A stretch of DNA of 64,000 bases from an uncultured bacterium (GTDB lineage Bacteria > Patescibacteriota > Minisyncoccia > Phycocordibacterales > CAIZLB01). The stretch lies in assembly GCA_903821355.1 (NCBI GenBank), contig CAIJKW010000030.1, positions 27,897 to 91,896 of the forward strand, in the 5' to 3' direction. The number at the start of each line of letters is the position of its first letter. The first letter of the stretch is position 1. Shown piece after piece: positions 14,242-39,384 of the stretch. A model generated the notes under the pieces. That model was given only the letters and a program-made list of their open reading frames with translations. It made no database searches and was not told where the DNA came from. Both the position numbers and the translations under genes were made by a program.

Positions 14242-14249
14242 TTTATTGG

Positions 14250-14332
14250 TGCTCAGGGCGGGACTCGAACCCGCACAGGCTTTCGCCTACAACATTTTAA
14301 GTGTTGCGTGTCTACCATTCCACCACCCGAGC
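14250..14332 (-). tRNA. tRNA-Leu (anticodon UAA)
   Basis: Reverse complement GCTCGGGTGGTGGAATGGTAGACACGCAACACTTAAAATGTTG… Anticodon loop CTTAAAA, long variable arm, T-loop GGTTCGAGTCC. Confidence 0.8.
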
Positions 14333-14800
14333 TTTTTTATTTAAGCCTCTATGAGTTGGCTGTAAACTGTGACAATTTGGACAAAGTATCTGTAGGTTAG
14401 TTAGTCTATTGTCTCTACTATCACCGTTTATGTGATCTAACTCAAGAGGTAATCTACCATCTTTTGTGGTTTTGTTCCACCCGCACATCTCACACTTTTT
14501 TTCCTTTAAACCATCTTTAAATAATCTTTTCTTAAGTTTATAACTTTGAAATGAGCTGCCTTTTACTAAAATTTCTTTAGTTGGAATAAGTGGTATTTTA
14601 TTTTAAAATTTTTTGCCCTTACTCCAACCTCTGCCTGTAAAATGTTTTATGGATAGGCCGTATTCTAAAACATATTTCTTGATTTGAGAATAGTTTCCAC
14701 CAGCTTCAACTAATCCAAGTCTTTTCAAAACTTGTCTATAGCTTGTGGAATCAGCAACTGATTTTATTAAATTGTCTTTTGACCACTTTCTTTTTCTCAT
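14312..14800 (-). pseudogene. HNH endonuclease gene interrupted by a single in-frame TAA (plus 14603-14605); C-terminal part overlaps tRNA-Leu(UAA)
   Basis: Upstream ORF 14606..14800 (MRKRKW…SKGKKF*) is in the same frame as a downstream reading frame. That frame encodes …CEMCGWNKTTKDGRLPLELDHINGDSRDNRLTNLQILCPNCHS…, a canonical HNH motif. Confidence 0.6.
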
Positions 14801-22752: not shown

Positions 22753-23034
22753 CTATAATATGCCGATAATCAAATCGTAAGCAGGCTCACTTATTTCACC
22801 GTTGTCTTTTTTACGATTCAGTTCCGCAATAAGTTCTTCAGAGCTTGTTGGTTTTGTTGCCGAGTCTTTTATACTATCCAACACCGAAATAGCCTCATTT
22901 TGGCATGAGAGCATGTCCTTAGACATTTGTTCTTTGTAGGTCTGATTAAATTGACTTATGATAGCGCGCAGGTCATCGCAAACCACCTGCATGCTAAAAC
23001 TCATCTCCATAGACATTGGTCCTTCTTTTCCCAT
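22753..23034 (-). CDS. small hypothetical protein with C-terminal SHOCT-like motif (paralog A)
   Basis: C-terminus SSEELIAELNRKKDNGEISEPAYDLIIGIL, pattern L..L…G.IS/T..EY..L. Confidence 0.4.
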   Translation of the reverse strand: MGKEGPMSMEMSFSMQVVCDDLRAIISQFNQTYKEQMSKDMLSCQNEAISVLDSIKDSATKPTSSEELIAELNRKKDNGEISEPAYDLIIGIL

Positions 23035-23049
23035 TGTATTTTGTATTAG

Positions 23050-23385
23050 TTAGTAATAAGTTTGAGCCATTATTAGTCTGTAGGCTTTTTCACTCAAGGT
23101 GCCGTCTTTTTTGGCTTCATCTAACTTTCTCATAAGTTCTTCGGAGCTAATCTTGGGGCTAGTTGCTTTAATTGATTCAAGAGCTTCTGTTGCAGATCTT
23201 TGTATCTCAATTTCTTCTGCAGATAATTCTTTTTCAAATTTTTCATAACTTTCGTTGTAGCTGTGTATTGCATTATTTAGCCTGAAAGATATTTCATCCA
23301 CGTCAAAAAATGTTTCGGGTGTCTGATGTTTTTCGTTCATATTTTTGTGGTTAGTTGATAACACCCTAATTATAACAAAAGCCAC
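23050..23385 (-). CDS. small hypothetical protein with C-terminal SHOCT-like motif (paralog B)
   Basis: C-terminus SSEELMRKLDEAKKDGTLSEKAYRLIMAQ. Paralogous to 22753..23034. Confidence 0.4.
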   Translation of the reverse strand: MAFVIIRVLSTNHKNMNEKHQTPETFFDVDEISFRLNNAIHSYNESYEKFEKELSAEEIEIQRSATEALESIKATSPKISSEELMRKLDEAKKDGTLSEKAYRLIMAQTYY

Positions 23386-23524
23386 AGTATTAACAATCCG
23401 TTTCTAAGGGGGTGTAATAGGTGGGTTTATGCACGAACAGGTTGGCTTTTTGGCTAAAATAGATTAAGATAGGAGAACAAAACCAGATTTTGCAGGGGTG
23501 GTTTTGAAGATAGAGAACATAAAT

Positions 23525-23596
23525 GGGCCTATAGTTTCAATGGTAAAACGACGGTCTCCAAAACCGCAGTTCGAGGTTCGAGTCCTCGTGGGCCCG
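23525..23596 (+). tRNA. tRNA-Trp (anticodon CCA)
   Basis: GGGCCTATAGTTTCAATGGTAAAACGACGGTCTCCAAAACCGCAGTTCGAGGTTCGAGTCCTCGTGGGCCCG. Anticodon loop CTCCAAA. Confidence 0.8.
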
Positions 23597-23620
23597 CTAG
23601 AATAATGAGCGGAGCGAATA

Positions 23621-23722
23621 TATTCTAGCAGGGTGCCGCAGCGAAGCTGTGGCCCCGCGGATACCAAACTCTCAGCGAAGGGTGCCGACAGCTTGGCTGT
23701 GGCCCCGCGGAAACTAAACGTT
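23621..23722. repeat. Two tandem ~48-bp direct repeats immediately 3' of tRNA-Trp, in the leader of the MFS gene
   Basis: gggtgccgcagcgaagctgtggccccgcggataccaaac… // gggtgccgacagcttggctgtggccccgcggaaactaaac…. Confidence 0.6.
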
Positions 23723-23745
23723 AAACGAAGGAAGGTTCTACATAA

Positions 23746-25015
23746 TATGACCCCCAAACCATTTTCACTACCAAAATACAAACAAACCTTCAAAAGCACC
23801 TTTGTCTCGCTTAGAAATCGCAACTACAGACTATTCACAATTGGACAAACAATCTCAAACACTGGAAACTGGCTTACAAACATCGCTCTTACTTTACTTG
23901 TACTTAAAATTACTGGAAGCGGACTCGCAGTTGGAATAGTTTCCGCACTTCAATTTGGTCCAATACTTTTTCTTTCAATGAGTGCGGGATCTATAGCAGA
24001 CAAATCAGATAAGCGACGTTTACTATTTTGGACTCAGGGTTTAGAGATGGCGCAGTCCGTAGGCCTGGCTATTTTAGCTTTTATGCCACATCCACCACTT
24101 GCTGGATTGTATATACTCGCAATAATTAGTGGAATTCTACTTTCATTAGATAATCCACTTCGTCGTTCCTTTGTAAGTGAAATGGTTCCAAAAGAAGATA
24201 TCCCCAATGCTGTTGTTTTATATAGCACGAGTGTTAATGTGGCAAGAATATTGGGACCGGCATTAGCAGGACTATTAATTGTTACGATGGGTTTTGGTTG
24301 GTGTTTTACCTTTGATGCTATTTCATACATTGCTGTTCTAATTTGCCTTAGGATGATTCGGCCAGCTGAACTTTATAGAAAACCAAAAAGTTGTAAAACA
24401 AATGAGGGCGTACGTGAGGGAATAAAATACATCTTTTCCATGCCATTATTGTTGGTCAACTTTGCTATGCTCGCCCTAATTGGAACGCTCGCATATAATT
24501 TTACCGTTACACTTTCACTATTTGTTACGAATTCCTTGCATGGTTCCATCGATAAATTTACTCTCCTTTATTCTGTTTTCAGTTTTGGTGCCATAGTCAG
24601 TGCACTTGTTGTTGCTCGCCGAGGTTTAGTAAATATTTCTCATATTATGTTTGGTGCTACTATGCTTGGAATTTCCATGCTTATGCTTGCGCTGGTACCT
24701 AGCATAATAGTTGCCATACCGATTATTTTTCTTGTTGGCGTATCAAGTATTCTATATATGACTGCAACAACCACTATGATTCAAGTTGAAGCAAAACAAG
24801 AAATGCATGGAAGATTAACAGGATTACAAAGTGTCTTTTTAATTGGCACAGGAGTGATTGGAGGGCCTCTTTCTGGATGGGTAGCGGATGCCATGGGTGC
24901 GAGAGTTCCAATTATATTTGGTGGAATAGCATGCCTTTTTGCTGCTCTTTTTTCTTATATTGCGATGTGGTATTTTAATCGTGCGAATGCGAAGGTATTA
25001 AATCCAGCGGAATAG
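23746..25015 (+). CDS. MFS transporter (EntS/MFS_3-like)
   Basis: 12-TM profile. SD AAGGAAGG is 10 nt upstream of ATG 23746. The earlier in-frame M of the track ORF lies inside the tandem repeat. Confidence 0.75.
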
Positions 25016-25125
25016 CGCACTATAATATTATATGTTTACTTTCATAATCTTATATATTTGATATGTAAGATTATATGAGGTAAATCAAGCCCTATTGGGG
25101 AAAGGTGACATGTTTAAAAAAGTAC

Positions 25126-25150
25126 ACCCCAGCCAAAGCTGGGGTTTTTA
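25126..25150 (+). terminator. Rho-independent terminator after the MFS gene
   Basis: accccagc-caaa-gctggggt followed by TTTTT. Confidence 0.6.
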
Positions 25151-25204
25151 GAGCTAAATACGCGCCCAGCGGATGCTGGGCGCGCGCGGACTTGTAACCA
25201 CCAC

Positions 25205-25873
25205 CTATCGCTTGTTTGCCAGTAGCGACGGTGCGAGAACAGATTCCACCTCTTCAATCCGACGCCGAAGATTTCTAAGTGGCTCCAGGTTGTCTTCACG
25301 CTTTTGGACGAGCGTTTTGATGGCCGCCGAAAGACCGTACCAAATATCTTTTGCGGTGAATCCTGTGAAATCCAAGAGAGATGATTGATCAAGTCTTGTG
25401 GGCTTAATCGAAACATACTTTGGAGTCCAGCGATGGTAGAAACCGCCCGGGGTAGTCAACATGTGAGCGATCTTCGTGATGTTTCCCAAAATCTCAATGG
25501 TAACTAATTTCATGTCACGACTTAACCCGAAGGTTTTTTGAGTTAGGCCTGTCGGCTCTTCTTTGTCATCCGGGTCATCGTAATTGAACTTTCGTTGGGC
25601 CATGACGTTTCTCCCAGACTCTGGGCAAATAACCCGTAGGTCTAGTGGTAGGCCGTCGATAACTAACGACCCATCTTCGGGCTTGGATTTTTTTATCGTG
25701 CGGCTTCCAAAGTAGTCCCAGTAAAGTTCAACATCCTCGATTGATTGGAGTGTCAAACTATGCATGAGCTGTGGAGTCAAAAGGTCCAATTGGGCCTTAA
25801 CGAGTTCCATCCACTCTTCATCTGTTAACGCGACAATATGGCGGGCCATAATCGCTTGTGCTTTCGATTTCAT
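25205..25873 (-). CDS. hypothetical protein (GC ~50%, likely horizontally acquired)
   Basis: 222-aa ORF with strongly elevated GC relative to the window. No recognisable motif. Confidence 0.5.
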   Translation of the reverse strand: MKSKAQAIMARHIVALTDEEWMELVKAQLDLLTPQLMHSLTLQSIEDVELYWDYFGSRTIKKSKPEDGSLVIDGLPLDLRVICPESGRNVMAQRKFNYDDPDDKEEPTGLTQKTFGLSRDMKLVTIEILGNITKIAHMLTTPGGFYHRWTPKYVSIKPTRLDQSSLLDFTGFTAKDIWYGLSAAIKTLVQKREDNLEPLRNLRRRIEEVESVLAPSLLANKR

Positions 25874-26228
25874 GCGTTTCGTTTTTTGTTGTTGTCTCTA
25901 CCTTTTGGCGTGCCATGGTAGAGTTGTTTGTTCAGATGCAAACCATCGGGTCTGCAAGTACGCCCTGAGTTGAGCGTTCTGTATAAAACGATACCAGACA
26001 TCTAGTTAAATGTCTAGGGGGTATGTATGTGCGGGGACTTAGCCGCAGCCACGTTTCCATAGCTTGGAAATTCTTTGGCGAAGAGCTAACTAAGCGGAAA
26101 ATTATATTTATTCTTGTCGCAGTTGATGCGGTGATATTGATTGGGTTGAGCTAGTTAAGTGGTTAAGGTGATCTATAAGAAATAGGGGAGAGAGTTGTTT
26201 AACATCTTATTTAATATATGAAAACAAT

Positions 26229-27347
26229 TTAAACAAAATCCAAAAAGTTATCTTTATTTACAACACTAAATTGTGCATCTTTATAATTCTCTAAAAAAGT
26301 AAACTTATGTTTTGATCTAGTATCATTCCATTTACATTCATATCCTTGCAACTTTCCGTCCTGCTCTATTACGATATCAACTTCTTCACCTTTTTTACTT
26401 CTCCAAAAATATATTCCAAATAGTTTTCCAGAAAATACATTCTTTTTGAAAATCTCCATAAATATGAAGTTTTCAAATAGCTGTCCAAAGTCATTTCTAA
26501 CCTCCAATTTGTTTAAGTTTTGAATCAAAGCATTTCGTACTCCCAAATCATAAAAATAATACTTTTTCTTTTGAGTGATTTCACTTCTTGGATTGCTACT
26601 ATAAGGACTTACGGACTTTATGATGAAGGTCTTTTCAAGTAGGTCCAAATATTTTTTAACAGTTTTTTGATCACAGTTTGCTGTGTTTGCTATCTCGTTA
26701 TAAGAAACTTCATTACCAATTTGAAATGCAACACATCTAGTGATGTCTAGAAGTAGTTTTGATGATTTTAGCTTATCAAAAGACAAAACATCCTTGAAAA
26801 GGTAAGAGGAGACCAATTCTCCAAGTAGTTTTTCTTTTATGCTTGTATCATCAGTACTTAATATCTCTGGATATGAACCATAAATTAATAGATTCTCCAA
26901 GTTGTTTTTCTTATCAAAATCATTACCTTCACATTCTTTGGTGCTGATTGGGAGTAGTGTCATTGTAAAATGTCTTCCAGTGAGAGGCTCTCCAACCTTT
27001 TGCATAATTTCAAAAGAGGAGGACCCTGTGAGGATGATCGTTTTGTCTTTATACTCATCTATCATCATTTTTACTCCAATTCCAATATCCTCAATCATTT
27101 GTGCTTCATCAATGACGATAATTTCATAAGGTAGACAATATTGTAAAAGCTCAGCACGATTTTGCCTTTTAAACATTGAACGCAAAACCAGATCATCTCC
27201 AACATCATATCTGACCTTTTTGTCTTTATTTGAATTAAGAAAATTTTTGGCCATGGTAGTTTTACCTATACGTCTTGGACCGTATATTATTAAGACTCTA
27301 CCAGGATAGAGTACGTCTTCAATCTTCTGTATTCTTTGAAAATTCAT
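26229..27347 (-). CDS. AAA+ family ATPase (COG1373 / DUF4143-type)
   Basis: Walker A VLIIYGPRRIGKTT, Walker B IIVIDEAQ, and C-terminal DUF4143-like region. Confidence 0.7.
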   Translation of the reverse strand: MNFQRIQKIEDVLYPGRVLIIYGPRRIGKTTMAKNFLNSNKDKKVRYDVGDDLVLRSMFKRQNRAELLQYCLPYEIIVIDEAQMIEDIGIGVKMMIDEYKDKTIILTGSSSFEIMQKVGEPLTGRHFTMTLLPISTKECEGNDFDKKNNLENLLIYGSYPEILSTDDTSIKEKLLGELVSSYLFKDVLSFDKLKSSKLLLDITRCVAFQIGNEVSYNEIANTANCDQKTVKKYLDLLEKTFIIKSVSPYSSNPRSEITQKKKYYFYDLGVRNALIQNLNKLEVRNDFGQLFENFIFMEIFKKNVFSGKLFGIYFWRSKKGEEVDIVIEQDGKLQGYECKWNDTRSKHKFTFLENYKDAQFSVVNKDNFLDFV

Positions 27348-27512
27348 AGCAGTATACTATCAAAATCCCTAAAAAAGTCAAGTTTTAGAGATTGATAATC
27401 CCTAAAATAGCAATTTTATGTGGATTTTAATGGAATTTGCTCAATCATTGGTTGATTGTAAATCTTATATAATCTCACACGTTGGATATGTAGGATTCTA
27501 TCGCATAATTGC

Positions 27513-28271
27513 CTACCCCAACCCAACCACCCGCTCAAAATCCCTACTTTGCTCATACCTCTTGCCGTACGCCTTGCTCGCCTGATACAGCGCCATCAAA
27601 AGATGATTGATATTTTGATTTTCAATTTTTATGGCGACCTCCCTGAACCAATCGATAAAAAAAGAAAAATTACCAATCATAAACATCTCAGATTTTTCAT
27701 CCATAAAATCTGCAGAAACCTTAACCATGTCCTCCAGCCTCCCCGTGAATGCCTTGGCAACCAACTTAGCGTCAACTCCACTATATTGATTAAAAACACT
27801 TCTCGTCAGGTCTCCATGGACAATACTGTCTACGATAAATCTTTTATCGGTTATTGTTTGGCTAACTTCCTGAACAATCTTCTTTGAAGATCTCTTAATT
27901 GCTTCTCTAAAAGAAAGGCTTGGCTGAATACCGGTAAGCCTGCTTCCGATGGGCTCTTTAGTCACTTCCTGCCAAAGCGTCTCTATTGCTTTAGAACCAG
28001 AATATATTGTTATGGAACCAATTTTGACGATGGGGGACGGTGGCGGAATTGTTTGTTTGGTGGGGGTTTTTGAGGTGGGTAATTTATATATTTTTCTTTT
28101 CTTGTGAAGGGAGAAGGTTATTAGTTTTTTGCTGAGGAGTTTATTAATATTGTATTCGATGGTGCTTCTGGAGGTGGAGAGGCGTTTTGCGAGTGCCGCG
28201 AGGGTTCCGGGGAGAGTGAGGGAGAGGAGGATTTTTCTCTCGTGGGATGATAGATCGAGGTGGGTGGTCAT
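27513..28271 (-). CDS. putative winged-helix DNA-binding protein with uncharacterised C-terminal domain
   Basis: N-terminal HTH-like segment SSHERKILLSLTLPGTLAALAKRLSTSRSTIEYNINKLLSKKLI. The N-terminal coding DNA is G-rich. Confidence 0.4.
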   Translation of the reverse strand: MTTHLDLSSHERKILLSLTLPGTLAALAKRLSTSRSTIEYNINKLLSKKLITFSLHKKRKIYKLPTSKTPTKQTIPPPSPIVKIGSITIYSGSKAIETLWQEVTKEPIGSRLTGIQPSLSFREAIKRSSKKIVQEVSQTITDKRFIVDSIVHGDLTRSVFNQYSGVDAKLVAKAFTGRLEDMVKVSADFMDEKSEMFMIGNFSFFIDWFREVAIKIENQNINHLLMALYQASKAYGKRYEQSRDFERVVGLG

Positions 28272-28324
28272 GTGGGTATTATATCAATAGATTATGCAAA
28301 TAACCAAATTTAGTTATTTTAATA

Positions 28325-28747
28325 TTGATAATAATATTATTTCAAGCCATATTATTTAAATATTATTTTTTACATAGCAATCAAAATATCTTCCATGAGA
28401 TACTTGTTTATGTGAAAAAGATATCGATAATAATTTTAATTGGCATTTTGATTTTAATTGCTATATTATATTGGAGCAAGAAATTTAATGAAATATCTTT
28501 GACCCCTGGTCCCAGTTGTTTATATTATCAAGAAGAAATAACTTCACTACATAAAGAAAAGAGTACTGCAACAATCACTGATAGTTTCAAAGAAATTATT
28601 AAAGAAAATAATACTCCAGTGTATACAAAGCATGTTACAGAACTTCCCACTACGATACCTGTTGAGAGAATGTATCTTCGTGTTCTGGTAGTTTTAATGG
28701 AAGTTTTGGTACTGTATTTTACTTATGTTAAAGGCCAGCAATATTGA
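28325..28747 (+). CDS. possible small membrane protein
   Basis: AT-rich ORF with two hydrophobic segments. Weak. Confidence 0.2.
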   Translation: MIIILFQAILFKYYFLHSNQNIFHEILVYVKKISIIILIGILILIAILYWSKKFNEISLTPGPSCLYYQEEITSLHKEKSTATITDSFKEIIKENNTPVYTKHVTELPTTIPVERMYLRVLVVLMEVLVLYFTYVKGQQY

Positions 28748-28891
28748 TACGCCGCCGAATTATGAATAAAAATAGTTATTAGATAAGACGCTTTTTTTAT
28801 ATTGTCATGATATAATACCAAACATGAATTGTTAGAGATGATTACTGAAGCTTATATAAGATAAAATATTGTAGAAAAATAAGATAAATAC

Positions 28892-29386
28892 ATGATAATA
28901 AACGACTCCTACACATCAAAAAGAACTGGCATAACCCAAAGTATTCAATATGAAGAACTAGATAGTTTTGACGCCATTCGTTCCTTACCTGTTGGAGCGG
29001 CTGGGTCTTTTTGCTTTTACGAAAATAAGCTTGTGCTTGTATATGCCAAGGGCAGGAATTCTTGGGAGACACCCGGAGGAGGGTGTGAACCAGGAGAAAC
29101 TTTTGAAGAGAGCATCATTAGAGAAATCAGAGAAGAATCCAACATGAAAGTCCTTAAGCTTGTTCCGTTGGGTTGTGACACATTTACAAACAATGAGACA
29201 AAAGAAATTAATTACGTTCTTCGATTTGCTGCAAAAGTTGAACCGTACGGCCCATTTGTCGAGGAAACTGCTGATGGAGAAATTACAGAAATGAAGCTTA
29301 TCGATCCCAAGGATTATAAGCAGTATTTTGATTGGGGTGAGAGAAGCGATGCAATGATTAAAAAAGCTCTTGATATTCTTAAATAA
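28892..29386 (+). CDS. NUDIX hydrolase
   Basis: Nudix box TPGGGCEPGETFEESIIREIREESN (Gx5Ex7REuxEExGu). Confidence 0.7.
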   Translation: MIINDSYTSKRTGITQSIQYEELDSFDAIRSLPVGAAGSFCFYENKLVLVYAKGRNSWETPGGGCEPGETFEESIIREIREESNMKVLKLVPLGCDTFTNNETKEINYVLRFAAKVEPYGPFVEETADGEITEMKLIDPKDYKQYFDWGERSDAMIKKALDILK

Positions 29387-29388
29387 AA

Positions 29389-30210
29389 ATGAAACTCATC
29401 TCCTGGAACGTCAACGGAATACGCTCAGTCTTCAAAACCACCTTTAAGGATTGGCTTAAAAACTCGTCGCCAGATATTCTTTGCTTACAAGAAACAAAAG
29501 CAACTCACACAGAGTTGAGCAAGGAATTTAGCGAAATAGACGGATACTATTCATATTTCAATTCCTCATCGCTCAGGAAGGGTCACTCAGGTGTTGCGAT
29601 TTATACAAAAGTAAAACCGATTTCAGTTGAGACAAAACTTGGTATAGAAAGATTTGACGATGAAGGCAGGTGTCTGAAGCTCACCTTCGACAATTTTATT
29701 TTGTTCAATTTTTATATTCCAAACGGTTCAAGAGATCAGCACGATATTCCATACAAACTAGAAGTCTACAAAAAACTTTTGCAAATCATAGCCCTGATAA
29801 AAGATAAAAAAGTAATTTTGACTGGCGATTTTAACATCGCTCATACTGAACTTGATGTTTTTAACGCAAAGCAAAATTATAATAATACAATGTTTACCAA
29901 GGCGGAGCGAGAGCAAATCACTAAACTTCTGCAGGCTGGATATACTGATACCTTCAGATACAAATATCCGGAGAAAAGTGCTTACACCTGGTGGCCTTAT
30001 ATGAACGATTTACGTGAGCGTGACATTGGTTGGAGAATAGATTATTTTTTCATCACCAATTCATTATTACCAGATTTAGCAGATGCTTTTACTGAGCGAG
30101 AAAGCTTGGGCTCGGATCATGGTCCTTGCGGAATAATTTTAAATATGGATTTTAAAATTGACGAAGTCCCAATTTACGAAAAGGATGAGGTGCAGGGTTT
30201 GTTGTTCTAA
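29389..30210 (+). CDS. xth: exodeoxyribonuclease III (AP endonuclease, Xth/APE1 family)
   Basis: MKLISWNVNGIRSV…LCLQETK…LTGDFNIAHTELD…WRIDYFF…GSDHGP motifs. Confidence 0.85.
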   Translation: MKLISWNVNGIRSVFKTTFKDWLKNSSPDILCLQETKATHTELSKEFSEIDGYYSYFNSSSLRKGHSGVAIYTKVKPISVETKLGIERFDDEGRCLKLTFDNFILFNFYIPNGSRDQHDIPYKLEVYKKLLQIIALIKDKKVILTGDFNIAHTELDVFNAKQNYNNTMFTKAEREQITKLLQAGYTDTFRYKYPEKSAYTWWPYMNDLRERDIGWRIDYFFITNSLLPDLADAFTERESLGSDHGPCGIILNMDFKIDEVPIYEKDEVQGLLF

Positions 30211-30226
30211 ATTGCAGAACGAAAAT

Positions 30227-30260
30227 CCCGCGCAAGCCATTCTGGCTTGCGCGGGTTCTT
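30227..30260. terminator. Bidirectional terminator between xth and the gtrA-like gene
   Basis: cccgcgcaagcc-attc-tggcttgcgcggg followed by ttctt. Confidence 0.6.
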
Positions 30261-30651
30261 AGGTGGTGAAAATTTTGCGTGTTATGAAGTAGCTCAAGAT
30301 GCTCAAAATCAGCGTGAGTATCACTTGCGAAATGTAAAGCTGGATGTGAACCCATTCGACAAGCATGTACAGCAGTGTCGTATTCAGTAGGAGGAATAAA
30401 AGCCCCATACCTATGTATTTGATTGCTTGTACATGAACGTCCTTTGTGTCACCGTTCTCGAATGTCCACAATTTCTGCAAGATGAAATTTGTCACTTGAT
30501 TTATCACATACGCGGAAATGGCCGAAGCCACATACCACACATGAACTAATTCAGTTAAAGAGTAAAGTGTGATGTAGTACAAACCCACACCGACTCCACC
30601 CGACAAACAAAATTTAGCCACCCGTTTCAATGTTTTTGATCTGATGTTCAC
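30259..30651 (-). CDS. GtrA-family membrane protein
   Basis: 130 aa, 4 TM segments, N-terminal KFCLSGGVGVGLYYITLYSL typical of GtrA-like proteins. Confidence 0.55.
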   Translation of the reverse strand: MNIRSKTLKRVAKFCLSGGVGVGLYYITLYSLTELVHVWYVASAISAYVINQVTNFILQKLWTFENGDTKDVHVQAIKYIGMGLLFLLLNTTLLYMLVEWVHIQLYISQVILTLILSILSYFITRKIFTT

Positions 30652-30817
30652 GGGTACCTCCTTGGTTGGTTGTTCTGTCTATATATTATCTAAAATTGAA
30701 AGTTAAGCAATGTTCACCCTCAGAATATTTTCCAAATCAAAAACCCGCCGGCCACGCTCTGTATGAGAGCGGACCAAGCGGGGTTTCTAACCATTTATTG
30801 GGGTGGTTTACCCTGAA

Positions 30818-31290
30818 TCAGCCTTTGGCGTCGGATGGCGCTGTAGCTGGTGTTGTGGCTGGCGGTGTCGTCGGTGCTGTCGCAGACGGTGGTGTCGCGG
30901 GTGGTGGAGGGGTGACTGGAATCACGACAGGTTGGACTTTTTCTTCTTCGACGAAGAGGTAGACAATGGCCTTATCGTAAAGCGCGGTTTTCTCAATCTT
31001 GACCCACACGTGGTCCTTCTTGTCGTGCCTGTAGATGTTGATTGAGTTGCCTTTCTTACAGGCAATATCAACGCTGGTAGGCCATGACTCGGTATGCCCA
31101 AAGTCTTGGACCCTGAGCATTCCACCGTCCTTAACGCACCTGTCCGCCTGGCCGATCTTCATCGGCAGGTAAATTCCCCTGTCGCAATCGTGGCGCACAA
31201 TCTTGTCGCCGTTGATGTACATGGCGAGCCCGTAGCCTCCCCATATGGAAGCGGCGATGATGACTAAAATGAAGGCGTAGAAACTTTTCA
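30818..31290 (-). CDS. secreted/membrane-anchored Cys-containing protein with Pro/Thr-rich C-terminal tail (GC-rich)
   Basis: Signal-like MKSFYAFILVIIAASIWG. C-terminus PVTPPPPATPPSATAPTTPPATTPATAPS. GC is markedly above background. Confidence 0.45.
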
Positions 31291-31571
31291 TGGTGATGTT
31301 GTTGTTGTATTGTTGGTTGTTCACCCTCTTGCCCTACGGCACCTAAAGAGAGAGTGACTATTCAGCTACCAATAGGGAATTGGAAGTTCAATATTCACTC
31401 TCTCAAGCCAAATTTAAAGGATCTTTATTTGCATCAAACATAACACCTTATATGTAATAAGTCAAGTTTTATATACGCAAAATTTTGACAAAACTGTTCA
31501 TCTATGAGATGATGTCTTTGGATACATGAAGAGACGGTTCTCTTTATGGTTCAGAAGAATCAAAACAATCT

Positions 31572-31994
31572 GTGAATATGAAAACGAAAGAACCACAAGA
31601 ATCTAACATGAAACCTAGAAAAAGATCCAAGCCACAGCCCCCGAAGCCGGTGTTGGTAGTCACACGAGGGTCTACAGCTACCAAAATGGTTGGAACTCTG
31701 TGGCTAAGGGACATGGAGACGGGCGCCATGACGGAGCCGGCGGAGCCGGCGATTCGTTTTGGCGATACCGCTGAAGAGGCTTTGGGCAGTCTCGTGCTGG
31801 GTCCTTGCAGTAGCCTCTTTGAATTGAGGGAGTTCATCAAACTGAATCGCGGGTTAGTCCCCGAAACAGTTGGGAGAAATCTTCTTCAATCAGCTAGGCT
31901 TCCCAACGGTTGTCTAGTGGGTATTGAGATAGATACCCTGCAAAACCTAAACGAGTGGACTTACCACAAGGGCATTCAACCGGTGCATTCGTAG
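31572..31994 (+). CDS. hypothetical protein (GC-rich)
   Basis: 140-aa ORF with a Lys/Pro-rich N-terminus and elevated GC. No motif recognised. Confidence 0.4.
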   Translation: MNMKTKEPQESNMKPRKRSKPQPPKPVLVVTRGSTATKMVGTLWLRDMETGAMTEPAEPAIRFGDTAEEALGSLVLGPCSSLFELREFIKLNRGLVPETVGRNLLQSARLPNGCLVGIEIDTLQNLNEWTYHKGIQPVHS

Positions 31995-32047
31995 CACCGC
32001 GGTCTATATCTGAAACAAAGACCATCTGCTGGGGAAACAATATGGTC

Positions 32048-32074
32048 AAAACTCAAACTCAAACTCAAAAACAC
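32048..32074. terminator. Bidirectional terminator
   Basis: cctccg-tacccag-cggagg followed by tgtttttt; A-run upstream. Confidence 0.6.
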
Positions 32075-32139
32075 AAAACCCTCCGTACCCAGCGGAGGTG
32101 TTTTTTATTTTGACGATTTTATCTTGCAACCTTTAAAGT

Positions 32140-32616
32140 TTATTTTGTCGATCCTGAACCTTGTGGCATAACCTGCACTGGCGCTCCACCTGGTTGTATA
32201 TTAGGTCTCTGGTTGATTGTTGTAGCATTAATACTGCCATCGGCATTTGCTTGACCGTTAGCTGTTATTTGGCTTCCGACAACAATATCAGCAATTGTCC
32301 CCGCAGATGTTTTTTGTACCGCTGTACTTGAAGCGACAAAGATTATTTTTGATCCGCCGTTAGCTAGTTTAACCGTTATGCTTGTCGCGTCTTTGCTAAG
32401 TACTTCTCCAAAAACATTGCCTGCGCCACCGGCTTGTCCTCCTCGTCCACCTCTCATTCCACCTGCACCACCTGCTCCATTCAATCCTACGGCTCCAAAT
32501 TGTCCGCCTCTGTTTGCACCAGCATTTCCGGCCCCAACTTTTGTTCCTGCGTAAAATGATATTCCACCAACAAGAACCAAAACTATTATTGATATTATTA
32601 TTTGATTTTTTTTCAT
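32140..32616 (-). CDS. membrane-anchored Gly-rich protein, paralog of 36483..37055
   Basis: TM anchor, G-rich linker, and C-terminal domain with a GEVLSK…ITVKLANGGSKIIFVASSTAV… block shared with the protein at 36483..37055. Confidence 0.5.
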   Translation of the reverse strand: MKKNQIIISIIVLVLVGGISFYAGTKVGAGNAGANRGGQFGAVGLNGAGGAGGMRGGRGGQAGGAGNVFGEVLSKDATSITVKLANGGSKIIFVASSTAVQKTSAGTIADIVVGSQITANGQANADGSINATTINQRPNIQPGGAPVQVMPQGSGSTK

Positions 32617-32631
32617 ATTATTTATTATTAT

Positions 32632-33852
32632 TTATTCATACTTCAGCGCATCTATTGGATTCAACCCTGCTGCACGCCTTGCGGGATAGTATCCAAAGAC
32701 GATGCCGATGACCGCTGAAACCGTGAAGGAGAGGATAATAGAAAACCACGAGACCTGCGTTGCAATTAATCCAAAATAATTTATTAAGAACGATATTAGC
32801 CAACCCAAAATTATTCCAATTCCTCCACCAATAAATGTTAGCATCAGTGCTTCAATCAAGAATTGCAAACTGATATCTTTGTTTCTTGCGCCAATCGCTT
32901 TTCTTAAACCTATTTCACGAGTTCTCTCTGTCACTGTTGTAAGCATCATATTCATAATTCCAATTCCACCAACCACAAGTGAAATTCCTGCAACGGAACC
33001 AAGCAAAATCGTAAAAATTTGTGTAATACTTGTTGCGGTTGCGGCAATGTCTGCTTGATTGAGTACGCTAAAATCTAGCACGCCATTTTTGATATTATGT
33101 TTTGTGGTTAAAATATCTGTAATTTGAGCTTGAATACCTGCGCTAGAATTTGAGTCTGGAGCTTGCACGCTGATTGTCGTCACATATTCATCGCCAGACA
33201 GTAGTCTTTGTGCAGTTGAGAGTGGCATCCAAATTAAATCGTCCTGACTACCAAAACCGGATCCTCCTTTTGCAACTGTCATTCCGATGACAGTAAAATC
33301 CACCTTATTAATTCTAATTTTTTTACCAATCGCATCAACGTCTACGCCAAAAAGATCATCTCTTACGTTTGGCCCAATTACAGCAACCTTACTTCCAGCC
33401 TGTAAATTTTGATCTGTGATAAAGGTACCTTCTGCGATGGATACATTTCTGACCGATTGATAATCTGGCACGGTACCTGTAATTGTTGTGTTTGTGTTTT
33501 GTCCTTGAGCTGTTACTTGATAACGTCCAGAAACTTCAGGGGCGATTGCTTTAATATTTGTGGCCTGCTGTTGAATTGCAGTGACGTCTTCAAGTGTTAA
33601 TGTTTTTGCACTTCCTCTTCCGGCGCTAATTTGAACTCCAGGACCACGTTGTGCTCCAGGAGTAATCAAAATCAAGTTCGAACCGATAGATTGAATACTT
33701 GATTGAATAGAATTCTGCGCCCCTTGTCCAATTGAAAGCATGGCGATAACAGAGCTTATTCCAATCACAATTCCAAGCATCGTTAAACCTGAACGCACTT
33801 TGTTTGCGAAGATTGCTGAATATGTTTCGTGTAGTATGTCAAATATTGTCAT
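32632..33852 (-). CDS. ABC transporter permease, MacB/FtsX-like
   Basis: N-terminal TM, large extracytoplasmic MacB_PCD-like domain, and C-terminal FtsX 3-TM bundle. Confidence 0.8.
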   Translation of the reverse strand: MTIFDILHETYSAIFANKVRSGLTMLGIVIGISSVIAMLSIGQGAQNSIQSSIQSIGSNLILITPGAQRGPGVQISAGRGSAKTLTLEDVTAIQQQATNIKAIAPEVSGRYQVTAQGQNTNTTITGTVPDYQSVRNVSIAEGTFITDQNLQAGSKVAVIGPNVRDDLFGVDVDAIGKKIRINKVDFTVIGMTVAKGGSGFGSQDDLIWMPLSTAQRLLSGDEYVTTISVQAPDSNSSAGIQAQITDILTTKHNIKNGVLDFSVLNQADIAATATSITQIFTILLGSVAGISLVVGGIGIMNMMLTTVTERTREIGLRKAIGARNKDISLQFLIEALMLTFIGGGIGIILGWLISFLINYFGLIATQVSWFSIILSFTVSAVIGIVFGYYPARRAAGLNPIDALKYE

Positions 33853-33896
33853 ATGTTTTTATTTTGTTATAGCGATTTTTCGTCTTCGCCATTTAT

Positions 33897-34631
33897 TTAT
33901 TGTTTTAACGAATTTATCTTTGCAAGCTCCAAAACGGCATCTTTCTTCTTGTGATTTTTTCTGTCTTCTGTAATTTTTCCATCTCTAATAACAATTATTC
34001 TGTCTGCGTGTTCTGCAACGTCTGGCTCGTGGGTAATTAAAATAATTGTTCTACCTAATTCTTTATTTAACTTTTGAAACGTCCCCAAAACAATTTCTCC
34101 AGTTTTGCTGTCTAAGTTTCCGGTTGGTTCATCGGCCAAAATTAAACTTGGATTGTTTACGAGCGCGCGAGAAATTGCTACACGTTGAATTTGACCACCA
34201 GAAAGTTGATTGGATAGGTGAGTGAAGTGGGTTTCATCTAATCCTGATGCATGTAGAGCTTCTCTTGCCCGCCTGTCTCTTTCTTCTTCGCCAACACCTG
34301 AATAAATAAGGGGGAGCATTACGTTTCTAAGAACTGTGCTTCTGGGTAGTAGGTTGAACGATTGAAAGACAAAGCCAATTTTATCTCTCCTTATATCTGC
34401 CAGCTCGTCATCCGTTAGGGAAGAGACATCCTTGCCGTCCAAAAAGTATGTTCCTGTTGTTGGAGTGTCTAAGGCACCTAGAATATGCATCAGAGTTGAT
34501 TTACCAGATCCAGATGGACCCATGATGGCAACAAACTCGCCGTCTTCAATTTTAAAGCTAACACCATCAAGCGCAAGAAATGCGTTGGCGTCCGGGTCAT
34601 ATATTTTTGTAATGTTTTTTACGTCAATCAT
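33897..34631 (-). CDS. ABC transporter ATP-binding protein (MacB/LolD-type)
   Basis: Walker A GPSGSGKST, signature LSGGQIQR, Walker B LILADEPT. Confidence 0.85.
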   Translation of the reverse strand: MIDVKNITKIYDPDANAFLALDGVSFKIEDGEFVAIMGPSGSGKSTLMHILGALDTPTTGTYFLDGKDVSSLTDDELADIRRDKIGFVFQSFNLLPRSTVLRNVMLPLIYSGVGEEERDRRAREALHASGLDETHFTHLSNQLSGGQIQRVAISRALVNNPSLILADEPTGNLDSKTGEIVLGTFQKLNKELGRTIILITHEPDVAEHADRIIVIRDGKITEDRKNHKKKDAVLELAKINSLKQ

Positions 34632-34701
34632 GTTTTTAGGTTTTTATAGGTCAAGAAACAGTTTTTGAATATTTGTGTGATCAACACTACGATCCCAATT
34701 G

Positions 34702-36477
34702 CTATCTGCCGGCCGGTGCGCCACCACCTGTCCTTATAATACTACTTCCAGTTGAACCACTTCTATTTCCACCTGAACCAAACAGACTTGGCGCCGCCGC
34801 TGTCTTTGCAGCGGTCGCGCTTGCTGTTGATGTTTTGGTAACGATTCTATCGCCAACATTTAAACCAGAAACAATTTCTGTTGAAGTGTCATTAGATAGT
34901 CCAACCGTTATTTCTTGTTGCACCGGAGTTTCATTAACGACAACTGGTGTAGTTGAAGTTGCAACATTTGCGCTAAATACTTCAACATATTGAACACCAT
35001 TTTTTATTTTTACCGCACCATTTGGGATAACAATCACATCCTGTTTGTTGTTTGTGATTACAGAAGCGCTAACGCTCATGCCGGATTTGACTCTATCGTC
35101 CTGAACATCAAAAGTAATTTTTACATTATAATTTACGACACCTTGTGTAACAGTTCCAATCAAGTCAATTGATTGAACAACGCCGGAAATATTTAGGCCA
35201 TCAATAGCATCAAATGTGAGCGACGCCTTTTGCCCAGCGGATATCTTAGCAGCATCAACTTCATTCACTGTTATATCAGCCACTTTATTTTTTGTGATAA
35301 TTGTTCCAATAGAGCCACCGGAAGAAACCGTATCAGACGGCTTGGCTGTTATTTGCGCAATTACACCATCAAATGGAGCTGTAATAAATATATTTTGATA
35401 TGCCAATTGCGCTTGAGCAAGATTTATTTTTTGAGACGCGACATCAAGGCTGTCTGCCCCAGTTGTAATTTTATCCAGGCTCGCTTGTTTTTGCGCAAGT
35501 GTTTGAGGACCATTTTGAATAGTATTTTTTAGATCAGAAATATTATTCATCGAGCTTGATAGGCTGGATAAGTCTGAGTTAATTTTTCCAATCCAACTCG
35601 TCAAGTTGCTTGATGCTGTGTTTGCAGCGGCGCTTGCTGATGAGCTGGGTGTGCTATTAGGATCTGTGTTCTTTACATAATCCACTGTATTTTTTAATTC
35701 AACTAATACACTAGAAAGTTGCTTTGATACGTCGTAAGTTTTTTTAATTAATGAATCGGCTGAGCTTGTGGAGTCTAATCTTGACGAGCTTCTATAAGTT
35801 TGCAACACATTATTGTATGCGCTTTTTGCCTTATCGAAATTTATTCCATTGCTATTCTTTTGATTTTTTGTTTCGTTAGATCTTCCTATAAGATTTTGGT
35901 CTGACAAAAAACCAGTGCCAGAATATAACATATCATTTGATCCGTTTATGATATCTGACAAATCTATGTATGTTGAGGCAATAGAACTGTAGGCTGTGTC
36001 GTACGCACTACTTAAATCATCCGCCGATTTTGTCAGGCTTTGCTTTGTACTATTAAAATCATTTTGCGCTTGAATCAAAGTTGATTGATCTGCTGGCTGA
36101 ACAAGTTTTTGATAAGCAATTTGTGCACTTTGTAAATCCAAATACGCCCCTGGATTATCTATTTGTGCGATAACTTGCCCCGCCTTAACCTCTTGTCCCG
36201 TAGTCACATTTATTTTCAAAATATTTCCAGAAGATTTTGCTTTTAGATCAATTTGATTTGAAGCTGAAACTTGGCCACTTCCTGTGACATTGGTGACGAT
36301 TGCGCCTTTTTGAACATCAGCAATGGCATAAGTTGTAATGGTGCTTGCTGGAAAAAGAACTTTGTATAACTCATAGATTATCAAAATCAAAATAATAGCC
36401 ACCGCTATGCTAGTTTTCTTATGCTTTATTACGTATTGCTTAAATTTTGGATAATTATTTTTCATATTTGTTTTCAA
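34702..36477 (-). CDS. HlyD/MacA-family periplasmic adaptor (membrane-fusion protein), unusually long at 591 aa
   Basis: N-terminal TM and biotinyl-lipoyl-like segments (VTGSGQVSASNQIDLKAKSSGNILKINVTTGQEVKAGQVIAQID; ITAKPSDTV…) flanking a long coiled-coil/low-complexity insert. Confidence 0.6.
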   Translation of the reverse strand: MKTNMKNNYPKFKQYVIKHKKTSIAVAIILILIIYELYKVLFPASTITTYAIADVQKGAIVTNVTGSGQVSASNQIDLKAKSSGNILKINVTTGQEVKAGQVIAQIDNPGAYLDLQSAQIAYQKLVQPADQSTLIQAQNDFNSTKQSLTKSADDLSSAYDTAYSSIASTYIDLSDIINGSNDMLYSGTGFLSDQNLIGRSNETKNQKNSNGINFDKAKSAYNNVLQTYRSSSRLDSTSSADSLIKKTYDVSKQLSSVLVELKNTVDYVKNTDPNSTPSSSASAAANTASSNLTSWIGKINSDLSSLSSSMNNISDLKNTIQNGPQTLAQKQASLDKITTGADSLDVASQKINLAQAQLAYQNIFITAPFDGVIAQITAKPSDTVSSGGSIGTIITKNKVADITVNEVDAAKISAGQKASLTFDAIDGLNISGVVQSIDLIGTVTQGVVNYNVKITFDVQDDRVKSGMSVSASVITNNKQDVIVIPNGAVKIKNGVQYVEVFSANVATSTTPVVVNETPVQQEITVGLSNDTSTEIVSGLNVGDRIVTKTSTASATAAKTAAAPSLFGSGGNRSGSTGSSIIRTGGGAPAGR

Positions 36478-36482
36478 TTATT

Positions 36483-37055
36483 TTATTGTGCTATTGATGA
36501 GGTAGTTGCTGGATTTGCTGAATTCACCGAATTAGCATTACCAGTAGATGTTGCTGTCCCTGTTGTTGGTGGGGGAGGAATTAATCTAATTAATCTTGCG
36601 TTTATTGTACCGTTGTCTGTTGAAGAAGCTTCGCCTAGGACGATGATGTAATCGCCAATTTTTAAATCTTGTGTATTTAAAGTATTTCTAAATTGTCTAA
36701 TTAATGTATCGCTTGAAATACTAATTGTTTTTTCAACGTTATCAGTTGAAGCTACAATAATATTTGGTAAATTAATTGATACGATTTTTCCAACCGCTCC
36801 ATGTCCGCCAGGTAGATTTGCATCTTGCATCATGTTTCCAAAAACTGGTTGTCTGCCCATCATTCCACCTCGTCCACGATTTTCATTAAATGAATTATAA
36901 TAATTACCTTCTATGGATCCGTAGAACCTCGCTTTGTGATATCCAACAAAAATTCCAGCTTGGAAAACTGTAAAAATAATGATTAGAATGATTAAAAACT
37001 TAATTATTCCAAATCTGTCTATTTTTTCTTTTATTTTTTTGATATGTTCTTTCAT
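36483..37055 (-). CDS. membrane-anchored Gly-rich protein, paralog of 32140..32616
   Basis: TM, Gly/Met-rich linker, then GKIVSINLPNIIVASTDNVEKTISISSDTLI…GTINARLIRLIP domain. Confidence 0.5.
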   Translation of the reverse strand: MKEHIKKIKEKIDRFGIIKFLIILIIIFTVFQAGIFVGYHKARFYGSIEGNYYNSFNENRGRGGMMGRQPVFGNMMQDANLPGGHGAVGKIVSINLPNIIVASTDNVEKTISISSDTLIRQFRNTLNTQDLKIGDYIIVLGEASSTDNGTINARLIRLIPPPPTTGTATSTGNANSVNSANPATTSSIAQ

Positions 37056-37107
37056 GTCTTTAATATTTTTTTATTATTTGAAATTTGAATTTACTAAGTT
37101 GAATTTA

Positions 37108-37515
37108 TTAAGCCGTTATAAGTACTTTCTTTGCTTCGTTCATTGCCTTAAGTGTTGACCATGCAAAAACGGCTAGAATAACCAATAGCGATATTATGCT
37201 AATTGTAGGTATTGACTCTACAAGTGTAACCAGTATCTCTTTCCAATATATAATTGCCACATCAGAATCTGAGAAAATAAGAGAAAGATAATTATAAATA
37301 CCAGATTGAGTAAATGAGGCGATGACTTGAAAGATAACGGGGATAGATACTATTAATGAGACCATGGAGATAAAACTTAAGCCAAGAGTTTTAATCTTGG
37401 ATTTTTCACGATCTTTTTGGTCTAATTTCAAGATAATACTATTCACAAAGTCTTTTGGTATAGATATGTCTTGATTCTCTACTTTATTTAATAATCTTTT
37501 GAATTCACTAGTCAT
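37108..37515 (-). CDS. putative anti-sigma factor (membrane protein downstream of ECF sigma)
   Basis: 135 aa with a cytoplasmic N-terminus and two TM segments, immediately downstream of the sigma factor gene. Confidence 0.35.
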   Translation of the reverse strand: MTSEFKRLLNKVENQDISIPKDFVNSIILKLDQKDREKSKIKTLGLSFISMVSLIVSIPVIFQVIASFTQSGIYNYLSLIFSDSDVAIIYWKEILVTLVESIPTISIISLLVILAVFAWSTLKAMNEAKKVLITA

Positions 37516-37564
37516 ACTAACTCTATACGAGGTGGGGGAGGGTTTTGGTGCACATCACTGTTTA

Positions 37565-38128
37565 CTATAATATTCCCCTTAATTTTTTCAACGATCTTCC
37601 ATATTGGCTCTTAACAGTATTCATCGGCCTATCTATGATTTCCGCTATCTCTTCAAAAGTTAAATCTTCACTAATATGCAGGTGAATTATAAGTCTTTGA
37701 TTATCAGATAATTGAGCAAGAGCTTTCTTTAGGTTTTCTTCAGATTCTTTTTGCAAAAATACTTCATCAGGCAATGGTTCTTTGTCTACCAGGCTTGCTT
37801 CGAAATCAAAATTTTCTTCATCGCTTTCAGTGTCCAAGCTGGAAAAATTTATAGACTTTTTCTTTCTCAACTTATCTATTGCTGTATTTCTAGCGATGCT
37901 GAATAGCCAGGTTTTAAAATTTAAATCTGTATCAAATTTTGATAACTTCTGCCAAGCTTTTATAAATGTTTCTTGAGTAATATCCTCCGAGTCATCTTTG
38001 TTTCCAACCAACCTGAAAATAAAAAAATATACTGACTTTGCATGACGCTCTACAAGTACATTAAATGAAGCCCTACCTTGTGTGAGGTAAATAGATTCTT
38101 CAATTAATTGTAGATCTGTTTTTTCCAT
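37565..38128 (-). CDS. ECF-type RNA polymerase sigma-70 family factor
   Basis: Region 2 (FIFRLVGNKDDSEDITQETFIKAWQKL) and region 4 (LTFEEIAEIIDRPMNTVKSQYGRSLKKL). The start is taken at MEKTD; the track ORF extends to 38179 and would overlap miaA. Confidence 0.75.
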   Translation of the reverse strand: MEKTDLQLIEESIYLTQGRASFNVLVERHAKSVYFFIFRLVGNKDDSEDITQETFIKAWQKLSKFDTDLNFKTWLFSIARNTAIDKLRKKKSINFSSLDTESDEENFDFEASLVDKEPLPDEVFLQKESEENLKKALAQLSDNQRLIIHLHISEDLTFEEIAEIIDRPMNTVKSQYGRSLKKLRGIL

Positions 38129-39185: not shown

Positions 39186-39188
39186 TTT

Positions 39189-39269: not shown

Positions 39270-39384
39270 CCTATATTTTGTATAAATTGTACTACTAACC
39301 CCATCCAGTAGTAGATAGTATTATTCAATATCAACACGATGTCAACACTTTTGGCTATTTTCGGGGGTTAAATAATAAATATTT

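Follow-up and report, generated by a model that had tools for sequence, protein, structure and literature searches.

Gene content of the tRNA-Trp flank

The DNA analysed here is a 64-kb stretch of contig CAIJKW010000030.1 (hereafter the window), and the locus in question is the 3′ flank of its tRNA-Trp gene, where three small hairpins (H0, H1 and H2) are followed by genes for an exporter of the major facilitator superfamily (MFS), a protein of 222 amino acids (aa; orf222), an ATPase and a winged helix–turn–helix (wHTH) protein (Table 1). The organism belongs to Patescibacteria (Paceibacteria/Parcubacteria group), and the best ClpB match of the window has 79% identity. An earlier note on this DNA had described the segment 23596–28271 as a possible integrated island, and all the features that it listed were found where it had placed them. 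Its tandem repeats of ∼48 bp at 23621–23722 are essentially those detected by Tandem Repeats Finder, the array does run into the Shine–Dalgarno (SD) sequence of the MFS gene, and the two protein assignments were borne out, with AAA_14 and DUF4143 domains in the ATPase by Pfam and a weak HTH_20/Csa3-type winged helix in the wHTH protein. The note had also remarked on the absence of an integrase, and Pfam scans of open reading frames (ORFs) of at least 90–100 aa between 19.5 and 44 kb indeed gave no integrase or recombinase.

A jump in GC content had been read as a further sign of integration. The genes for MFS, orf222, ATPase and wHTH have 39%, 47%, 31% and 43% GC, respectively, compared to 38% for the window, and the excess is real for orf222 (47.1% GC and 51% at third codon positions, window 38.3%) and for wHTH. 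The jump is modest, however, and not peculiar to orf222: other 1-kb pieces of the window also attain 45–47% GC. The ATPase gene falls below the average.

Table 1. Features of the tRNA-Trp flank and of the DNA beyond it in the window
Feature	Position	Strand	Evidence and remarks
tRNA-Trp (anticodon CCA)	23525–23597	+	ARAGORN; Rfam RF00005, 58.7 bits; CCA end not encoded
H0, 8–9 bp AU-rich stem, loop GAGCGGAGCGA	23597–23628	+	fold; begins at tRNA 3′ end
Tandem repeat	23630–23731	+	Tandem Repeats Finder; period 50, 2.1 copies, 81% matches
H1, GGGUGCCGCAGC-GAA-GCUGUGGCCCC, tandem-repeat unit 1	23631–23657	+	direct reading, alignment
GTGGCCCCGC, one-mismatch copy of tRNA-Trp 3′ end	23649–23658	+	3′ strand of H1
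H2, GGGUGCCGACAGC-UUG-GCUGUGGCCCC, tandem-repeat unit 2	23680–23707	+	direct reading, alignment
GTGGCCCCGC, second one-mismatch copy of tRNA-Trp 3′ end	23699–23708	+	3′ strand of H2
MFS_3 (DHA3-type, EntS/Mef-like) efflux permease, 422 aa	23747–25015	+	Pfam PF05977, E 4e-53; SD GGAAGG 23730–23735, ATG 23747
Direct repeat, left copy AATCTTATATA..GATATGTAAGATT	25046–25072	+	27 nt
Terminator-like hairpin between convergent MFS and orf222 genes	25126–25145		scan call on minus strand; T run 3′ of stem
orf222, lineage-restricted protein	25205–25873	−	no family match; GC 47%
AAA_14 + DUF4143 ATPase, PADLOC candidate defence family PDC-S01	26229–27347	−	Pfam; PADLOC PDLC04789
Direct repeat, right copy AATCTTATATA..(10-nt insert)..GATATGTAGGATT	27461–27497	+	37 nt; 15 nt from wHTH stop codon
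Predicted TrmB/TrmBL2-like regulator (wHTH), 252 aa	27513–28271	−	AlphaFold model, Foldseek; L210 synteny
Second variable block: divergent AT-rich promoter region, doubtful 140-aa ORF, NUDIX, xth, GtrA, GC-rich 30.7–32.1 kb	28272–32139		
Backbone: o158, MacB/ABC/HlyD operon, two small ORFs, sigma factor, miaA, tRNA-Leu(CAA)	32140–39270	−	Pfam; L210 collinearity

Three conserved hairpins between tRNA-Trp and the MFS gene

The 150-nt interval from the tRNA to the MFS start holds H0, H1 and H2, and none of 200 shuffles folds as well (z = −3.9). Two sites of the pattern GGGTGCCG..GTGGCC are found in the window, with 0 expected. The decamer GTGGGCCCGC at the tRNA-Trp 3′ end (23588–23597) is found within one mismatch at just three sites on both strands of the 64 kb, namely the tRNA end itself, H1 and H2.

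Three instances of the full H0–H1–H2 element were found, one in the window (23594–23713, or 23597–23716 if the 120 nt after the tRNA are counted) and one each in two loci of relatives, L004 (563–686) and L210 (19161–19292, minus strand). When the three are aligned, pairing is kept in 96% of the 78 pair cells and five of the 26 pairs show compensatory changes, compared to 0 in every control with a slid register. H0 has three compensatory pairs among these sequences. H1 is identical in L004, while in L210 a G–C to A–U change preserves the pair; H2 is nearly identical in L210, and its distal stem is re-paired with other bases in L004. The near-sameness of H2 in the window and L210 shows that the two repeat units are old and do not stem from a recent duplication. 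Rfam 15 was searched at the gathering threshold and at E up to 10 with the window, with L210 and L048, and with six complete loci, and yielded no family for structures of this kind. No match to the H1 pattern was found in a scan of viral contigs, and a metagenome scan for GGGTGCCG..GTGGCC..GGGTGCCG was uninformative, with at least 120 matches that are nearly all chance hits in contigs of 60–80% GC.

Since the element ends 20 nt before the SD sequence, in what would be the 5′ untranslated region (UTR) of the MFS gene, it could be a dedicated cis-regulatory leader of the exporter (tandem riboswitch, attenuator or 5′ stabiliser), as the earlier note had offered as an alternative. It is GC-rich and structured within an AT-rich genome, it is co-inherited with the closest MFS gene (L004, 91% aa identity), and its stems are preserved by the compensatory changes described above. 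However, the same element stands before an unrelated gene, for an inositol phosphatase, in L210; the L004 copy lies 310 nt upstream of the MFS gene, with a strong terminator-like hairpin between; and it is missing upstream of the 74–79% identical MFS genes of L001, L003 and L208. Altogether the element accompanies two of the five distinct MFS_3 genes for which upstream DNA could be read, and its occurrence before different genes in different loci argues against a riboswitch of the MFS gene. Loops of 3–5 nt, moreover, form no evident ligand pocket, there is no Rfam family even at the relaxed threshold, and H0-type hairpins follow many tRNAs without a nearby transporter. The guanidine-II mini-ykkC riboswitches likewise place a tandem pair of similar GC-rich hairpins in the 5′ UTR of transporter genes, but the element in the window has neither their ACGR loop nor an Rfam match nor a conserved link to a transporter. 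Taken together, these data make a dedicated MFS leader unlikely.

The array could also act as DNA, with H1 and H2 as two imperfect palindromes that serve as operators for a repressor of the efflux gene, e.g. the nearby TrmB-like protein. Tandem imperfect palindromes upstream of efflux pump genes are known from operators of the MarR/TetR type, the winged-helix regulator is 2.5 kb distant, and its orthologue adjoins a convergent gene in both L210 and the P0125 contig, that of L210 being a different MFS gene. In the alignment, however, the outer half-sites are kept while the inner stems vary and still preserve pairing, and such changes point to a folded strand, not to base-specific contacts. H0 covaries too; the L210 regulator lies 8.4 kb from its element copy, beside a non-homologous MFS gene; and no promoter-like site overlaps the palindromes. 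We consider operators very unlikely.

Three further candidates were rejected. A leader peptide could start at ATG 23605 within H0, but neither L004 nor L210 has a corresponding ATG. The repeats of a type III toxin–antitoxin system would precede a ToxN/AbiQ nuclease gene, but the downstream gene here encodes a transporter. An integron attC site was dismissed on account of the size of the hairpins (25 nt) and of the scanned ORFs, in which no intI gene or cassette array was seen.

In L004 (452–562) and L210 (19293–19402, minus strand), a conserved block of ∼110 nt precedes H0 and holds GTCACTTTTGTCACTTTTTGA, a −10-like TGATACAAT, ACGGACGTTACAGG and GGTTCTAGC. Part of this block (ACGGACGTTACAGG..GGTTCTAGC) recurs in L064 at 14243–14284, 800 nt downstream of tRNA-Trp. 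The stretch has no tRNA match at E = 10, and its identity to the 3′ part of tRNA-Trp is 67% by manual count. It may be a promoter joined to the tail of another unit of the kind described below, or a decayed part of a tRNA.

A probable patchwork downstream of tRNA-Trp

In many relatives, ClpB, tRNA-Tyr, rpmG, tRNA-Trp, miaA (minus strand), tRNA-Leu, parB and topA follow in this order. The distance from tRNA-Trp to miaA ranges from 13 nt to about 2 kb in relatives and is 14.5 kb in the window; this makes the flank of tRNA-Trp a variable zone far larger than the segment singled out in the earlier note.

The distal part of that segment belongs to the conserved surroundings. The AlphaFold model of the wHTH protein (predicted local distance difference test score 80) is matched by Foldseek to TrmBL2 (5bpd, E 3e-7) and TrmB (3qph, E 2e-4) over ∼270 columns. 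By its predicted fold, the protein is a TrmB-like regulator, with an N-terminal winged helix and a C-terminal domain. The whole-protein fold and the two-domain layout are common to TrmB/TrmBL2 and the wHTH protein, but sequence identity is only 9–13% and the template modelling score about 0.4, the latter owing to domain orientation. None of the sequence profiles of TrmB matched; the profile hits were confined to two weak ones, HTH_20 at 20.5 bits, which is below its cut-off, and the Csa3 HTH at 20 bits. L210, which was found via this protein, encodes a 75% identical orthologue and is collinear with the window over wHTH, o158, the MacB/ABC/HlyD operon, two small ORFs, the sigma factor, miaA, tRNA-Leu and parB (57–95% aa identity). 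The presence of the wHTH gene in this synteny places it in the backbone, not in the cargo; from 32.1 kb to miaA the backbone is collinear with other relatives too. The two loci diverge in two places. Between the element and wHTH, the window has MFS_3, orf222 and the ATPase, and L210 has ten other genes; the 28.3–32.1 kb region of the window (NUDIX, xth, GtrA and a GC-rich stretch) corresponds to about 0.9 kb in L210.

The MFS gene has yet another distribution. It scores 181 bits against Pfam MFS_3 (gathering cut-off 27) and lies under the NCBIfam equivalog cut-offs of EntS (129 vs 324 bits), Mef(A) (47 vs 675) and Tap (46 vs 625). Homologues with 60–68% identity occur in Thermoleophilia, Gemmatimonadaceae, Armatimonadota, Cloacimonadota and Patescibacteria, and because conservation is so high across phyla, frequent horizontal transfer of this MFS_3 permease is suggested. 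The DNA homology of the window to L004, the metagenome contig with the closest gene, is limited to 23594–23658 and, for the gene itself, 23763–25030 (88.6% nucleotide identity), and the flanks are unrelated. A longer ORF from GTG 23633 was discarded as an N-terminal extension of the MFS protein, as homologues do not conserve the extension. In L003, the MFS_3 gene likewise begins 34 nt 3′ of a tRNA (Gln). In L001/L002 (79% identical MFS homologue) its neighbours are three genes of the RhuM family (PF13310), one for a polysaccharide deacetylase and one that is MliC-like, which is a second island-like setting of the exporter.

The search of defence and phage databases that the earlier note had proposed for orf222 left this protein without a match in PHROGs or PADLOC (or in Pfam and NCBIfam); the ATPase was connected by PADLOC to a candidate defence family. 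The note had called orf222 an orphan of ∼50% GC; the protein indeed has no database family, and its GC content is only slightly lower, but it is not a strict orphan, as two homologues with 59% identity occur in other gene contexts. One of these is placed between xth and miaA in another relative, and orf222 is therefore one of the genes of this neighbourhood in the lineage. The orf222 segment (25107–26114) is also found alone, and 99.7–100% identical, on contigs of 0.8–1.0 kb from two other metagenome assemblies (L206 and L207). These contigs end at 25107/25166 and 25998/26114, which is expected if the flanks of the segment vary between co-occurring strains.

PDC-S01, to which the ATPase is matched, joins an ATPase with a PD-(D/E)xK-type domain; it was identified from genomic embedding and is a candidate family awaiting validation (PMC12988326). 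The ATPase of the window shares with it the full-length hidden Markov model match (PDLC04789, E 8e-127, residues 6–372 of 372) and the AAA_14 and DUF4143 domains; the gene has no further defence gene adjacent to it. A direct repeat brackets orf222 and the ATPase gene, and its pattern AATCTTATATA..GATATGTARGATT has exactly two sites in the window, with 0 expected. Excising 25073–27460 from the window would leave 72 nt. In the P0125 contig and L210, whose wHTH proteins are 90% and 75% identical, a convergent gene ends 66 and 20 nt past the wHTH stop, respectively; the window differs from both in having the co-directional ATPase gene, not a convergent gene, at this place. The 2.4-kb segment with orf222 and the ATPase gene probably arrived later, by insertion at the junction of the MFS and TrmB-like regulator genes.

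The synteny with L210, the limits of homology to L004, the direct repeats and the isolated orf222 contigs all speak for several separate exchanges, not one integration, and by these comparisons the segment 23596–28271 is composed of three or more pieces, each exchanged on its own, rather than a single island. The comparison for presence or absence in relatives that the earlier note had proposed showed a site that varies piecewise and not as one block: wHTH is syntenic in L210, the orf222 homologue sits at xth–miaA, and the MFS gene with the hairpins is common to L004 alone.

It could still be argued that the flank is a decayed remnant of a classical tRNA-integrated element, which has lost its integrase and distal attachment (att) site and of which the hairpins are the proximal att copies. 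The 3′ ends of tRNA genes are common integration sites, the location and the degenerate copies of the tRNA end fit this view, the gene content of the site differs among relatives, and the genes are of an accessory kind, with an exporter exchanged across phyla and a candidate defence gene. To the extent that the flank varies in gene content and has degenerate copies of the tRNA end, the earlier proposal is supported. On the other hand, no integrase was found from 19.5 to 44 kb, the wHTH gene is backbone, an orf222 homologue resides in the xth–miaA neighbourhood of another relative, the pieces have separate histories, and GC content is raised in orf222 and wHTH only. Nor does a repeat of the tRNA end bound the segment, a point that the note had proposed to check: both copies are found upstream of the MFS gene, no more than 112 nt from the tRNA, and no repeat of the tRNA-Trp 3′ end or flank of at least 12 nt, distal or otherwise, exists in the 64-kb window. 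A decayed element of the classical type is accordingly an improbable explanation.

Structured units at the 3′ ends of tRNA genes in relatives

A covariance model of H0–H1–H2 was searched over 1.49 Mb of related Paceibacteria and gave weaker matches that start right at the 3′ ends of tRNA-Gly, tRNA-Cys, tRNA-Leu and tRNA-Tyr. L007 has a second, exact copy of the last 20 nt of tRNA-Trp, 170 nt downstream of the intact tRNA, and H0 and an H1-like hairpin come directly after it. Copies of this kind are frequent: for 46 of 317 tRNA genes, the tRNA's own 3′-terminal 16-mer recurs 40–400 nt downstream with at most two mismatches, compared to none of the 317 upstream and an average of 5.75 in a control with permuted tails.

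The DNA that ends in such a copy forms a unit of 109–191 nt (median 157), and 29 of 75 loci have at least one; a slightly larger set lists 47 sites. Units were found at tRNA-Tyr, tRNA-Leu (three anticodons), tRNA-Trp, tRNA-Lys and tRNA-Cys, to which the larger set adds one tRNA-Glu. Examples are L007 15039–15331, L048 12621–12729 (minus strand) and L031 12838–13004 and 2451–2611 (minus strand), with others in L052, L078 and L083; two double units and several tandem arrays occur. Each unit begins with a first hairpin, which is terminator-like with a GNRA loop or H0-like, and continues with a copy of the acceptor 5′ strand and a short hairpin, often GCAAACUGCUUUGC. There follow a complement of the T-stem and T-loop, a core, and a copy of the tRNA from the T-loop to the discriminator. 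This closing copy is paired with the complementary strand that lies upstream in the unit. At least four classes of core (A–D) can be told apart. For class A, the RNAalifold consensus of 15 units has 25 pairs, 18 of which show compensatory changes. In L031, one core is found at both tRNA-Lys and tRNA-Tyr, with arms that match the respective tRNA.

No Rfam match to the units was obtained among the scanned loci, at gathering or at E = 10. Viral contigs gave no match to the class B core and a lone match to class A, at the end of a coding region and thus in a context that is not comparable. A hammerhead or twister ribozyme was considered for the class A core and rejected, since by eye the linker order and conserved bases do not fit and Rfam was empty. 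A full-text literature search found no published description of such tRNA-flank units, and the family is apparently undescribed.

Two known kinds of structure come close. The partial tRNA duplications that tyrosine integrases leave as attL and attR likewise lie at the tRNA 3′ end, as do the direct copies of 16–27 nt from T-loop to discriminator in the relatives, and they share with the units the tandem arrays and the patchy occupancy of orthologous tRNAs. The units differ in that they are merely 109–191 nt long, hold no gene or integrase, and carry the complementary strand of the tRNA end within a conserved multi-helix fold with covariation; the use of one core with matching arms at different tRNAs of a locus (Lys and Tyr in L031) is also a feature of the units. 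As for the window, its copies are 10–11 nt long and stand before the cargo instead of around it. Simple attachment sites of an integrase would leave both the complementary strand and the sharing of cores unaccounted for. With the t-elements of plant mitochondria and tRNA punctuation, the tRNA-like domain of tmRNA and the bacterial Y RNAs, the units have in common an acceptor-like stem that ends in the tRNA 3′ strand and discriminator and is stacked on a T-stem-like helix, as well as the placement between a tRNA and a downstream gene. However, they match tRNA, tmRNA and Y RNA neither in sequence nor by covariance model. Arms that copy the neighbouring tRNA are not known to be a feature of these systems. 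A functional tRNA mimic alone would not explain the patchy occupancy and tandem arrays.

Further features of the window

The terminator-like hairpin between the MFS and orf222 genes (Table 1) may be able to act in both directions, given the A run on its plus-strand side, and it is followed by a GC-rich hairpin at 25161–25190. The 355 nt that separate orf222 from the ATPase gene (25874–26228) are non-coding and contain GC-rich hairpin-forming stretches, e.g. GCGGGGACTTAGCCGCAGCCACG, without an RNA family match. In the second variable block, the region 30700–32100 has 44–53% GC and two ORFs (168 and 140 aa) without a Pfam match; Rfam was empty here even at E = 1, and the stretch is missing from L210.

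Upstream of tRNA-Trp, the interval from rpmG contains two paralogous small proteins of 93 and about 96–111 aa (22753–23385, minus strand), which have in common the C-terminal motif ..SSEEL..K(K)DG..SE.AY.LI... The pair has no Pfam, PHROGs or PADLOC match and stands beside tRNA-Trp in none of 80 relatives. Between tRNA-Cys and tRNA-Leu(UAA), at 14312–14800 (minus strand), there are adjacent ORFs of 65 and 58 aa, the second with an HNH-type motif (..DHINGD..NLQILCPNCH); from its sequence, the pair resembles an HNH endonuclease gene that has been split or has decayed within the tRNA cluster.

A proposed reduced relative of the tRNA-flank units

The explanation that we favour, and hold to be just about probable, is that the tRNA-Trp flank is a patchwork, in which H0–H1–H2 is a reduced, core-less relative of the tRNA-flank units that is accompanied by varied cargo, followed by the 2.4-kb insertion, and bounded by a backbone that starts at the regulator. 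The link to the unit family comes from the similarity of H0, its position and the intermediate in L007. The loop of H0 fits the H0 type of the family (GAGCRAAGCGA), and the hairpin lies directly at the tRNA 3′ end. The L007 intermediate consists, in this order, of a class A unit, the exact copy of the tRNA-Trp end, H0 and an H1-like hairpin. H0 would then be the counterpart of the first hairpin of typical units, and H1 and H2 would be units shrunk to their terminal pairing, in which a small loop connects an acceptor-like 5′ strand to a 3′ strand that resembles the tRNA end. Different cargo would have been placed by the element in each lineage, i.e. the MFS_3 exporter here and in L004 and another gene set in L210.

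The predictions place neither a promoter-like nor a terminator-like site in the interval from tRNA-Trp to the MFS start (none on the plus strand from 23400 to 23750), so the two are probably co-transcribed, and after 3′ processing of the tRNA the hairpins would form the 5′ leader of the MFS mRNA. The hairpins are less likely to be a ligand sensor than a relic of events at the tRNA end, which would also serve in processing or stabilisation.

Several observations weigh against this reading. None of the seven tRNAs of the window has a copy of its own 3′ end of at least 16 nt (at most two mismatches), the copies for tRNA-Trp being 10–11 nt long with one mismatch, and a motif scan of the window found no core of classes A–D, the 3-nt loops of H1 and H2 sitting where the core would be. 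By the strict definition of the family, the element is therefore termed a reduced relative and not a member. Full instances of H0–H1–H2 number just three, which makes for thin covariation statistics, and in L004 and L210 the promoter-like block and weak tRNA-3′-like stretch stand before the element instead of an intact tRNA. As to the insertion, the repeats that flank orf222 and the ATPase gene have an AT-rich, partly palindromic sequence, and no empty site is seen in L210, where the repeat motif is missing and the MFS gene is non-homologous. The 2.4 kb may also be two pieces, because GC content differs between orf222 (47%) and the ATPase gene (31%) and orf222 assembles alone elsewhere.

A bolder proposal, which we make tentatively and regard as possible rather than probable, is that the array is a worn-down member of an undescribed class of small mobile elements that mimic tRNA. 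Such elements, of about 110–190 nt, would each sit at a tRNA 3′ end, carry both acceptor/T-stem strands and a conserved multi-helix core of one of at least four classes, form tandem arrays, and accompany ∼15% of the tRNA genes examined.

For the window itself, the outcome is mostly a correction, and the 23.6–28.3 kb region should not be labelled a tRNA-integrated island by annotators. The most interesting result is the family of tRNA-flank elements that was met while tracing the repeat. If these units are indeed mobile and mimic tRNA, their spread would involve a mechanism by which the arms are fitted to each target tRNA, for which candidate routes are an RNA or small circular intermediate that recombines through the identity segment from T-loop to 3′ end, or tRNA-primed copying. 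The units would then mark tRNA flanks where cargo such as the MFS exporter is exchanged, and this would bear on how the flanks of tRNA genes in small patescibacterial genomes turn into hot spots of gene exchange, on the origin of partial-tRNA calls in these genomes, and on whether tRNA-processing enzymes serve, by recruitment, to punctuate tRNA–mRNA co-transcripts.

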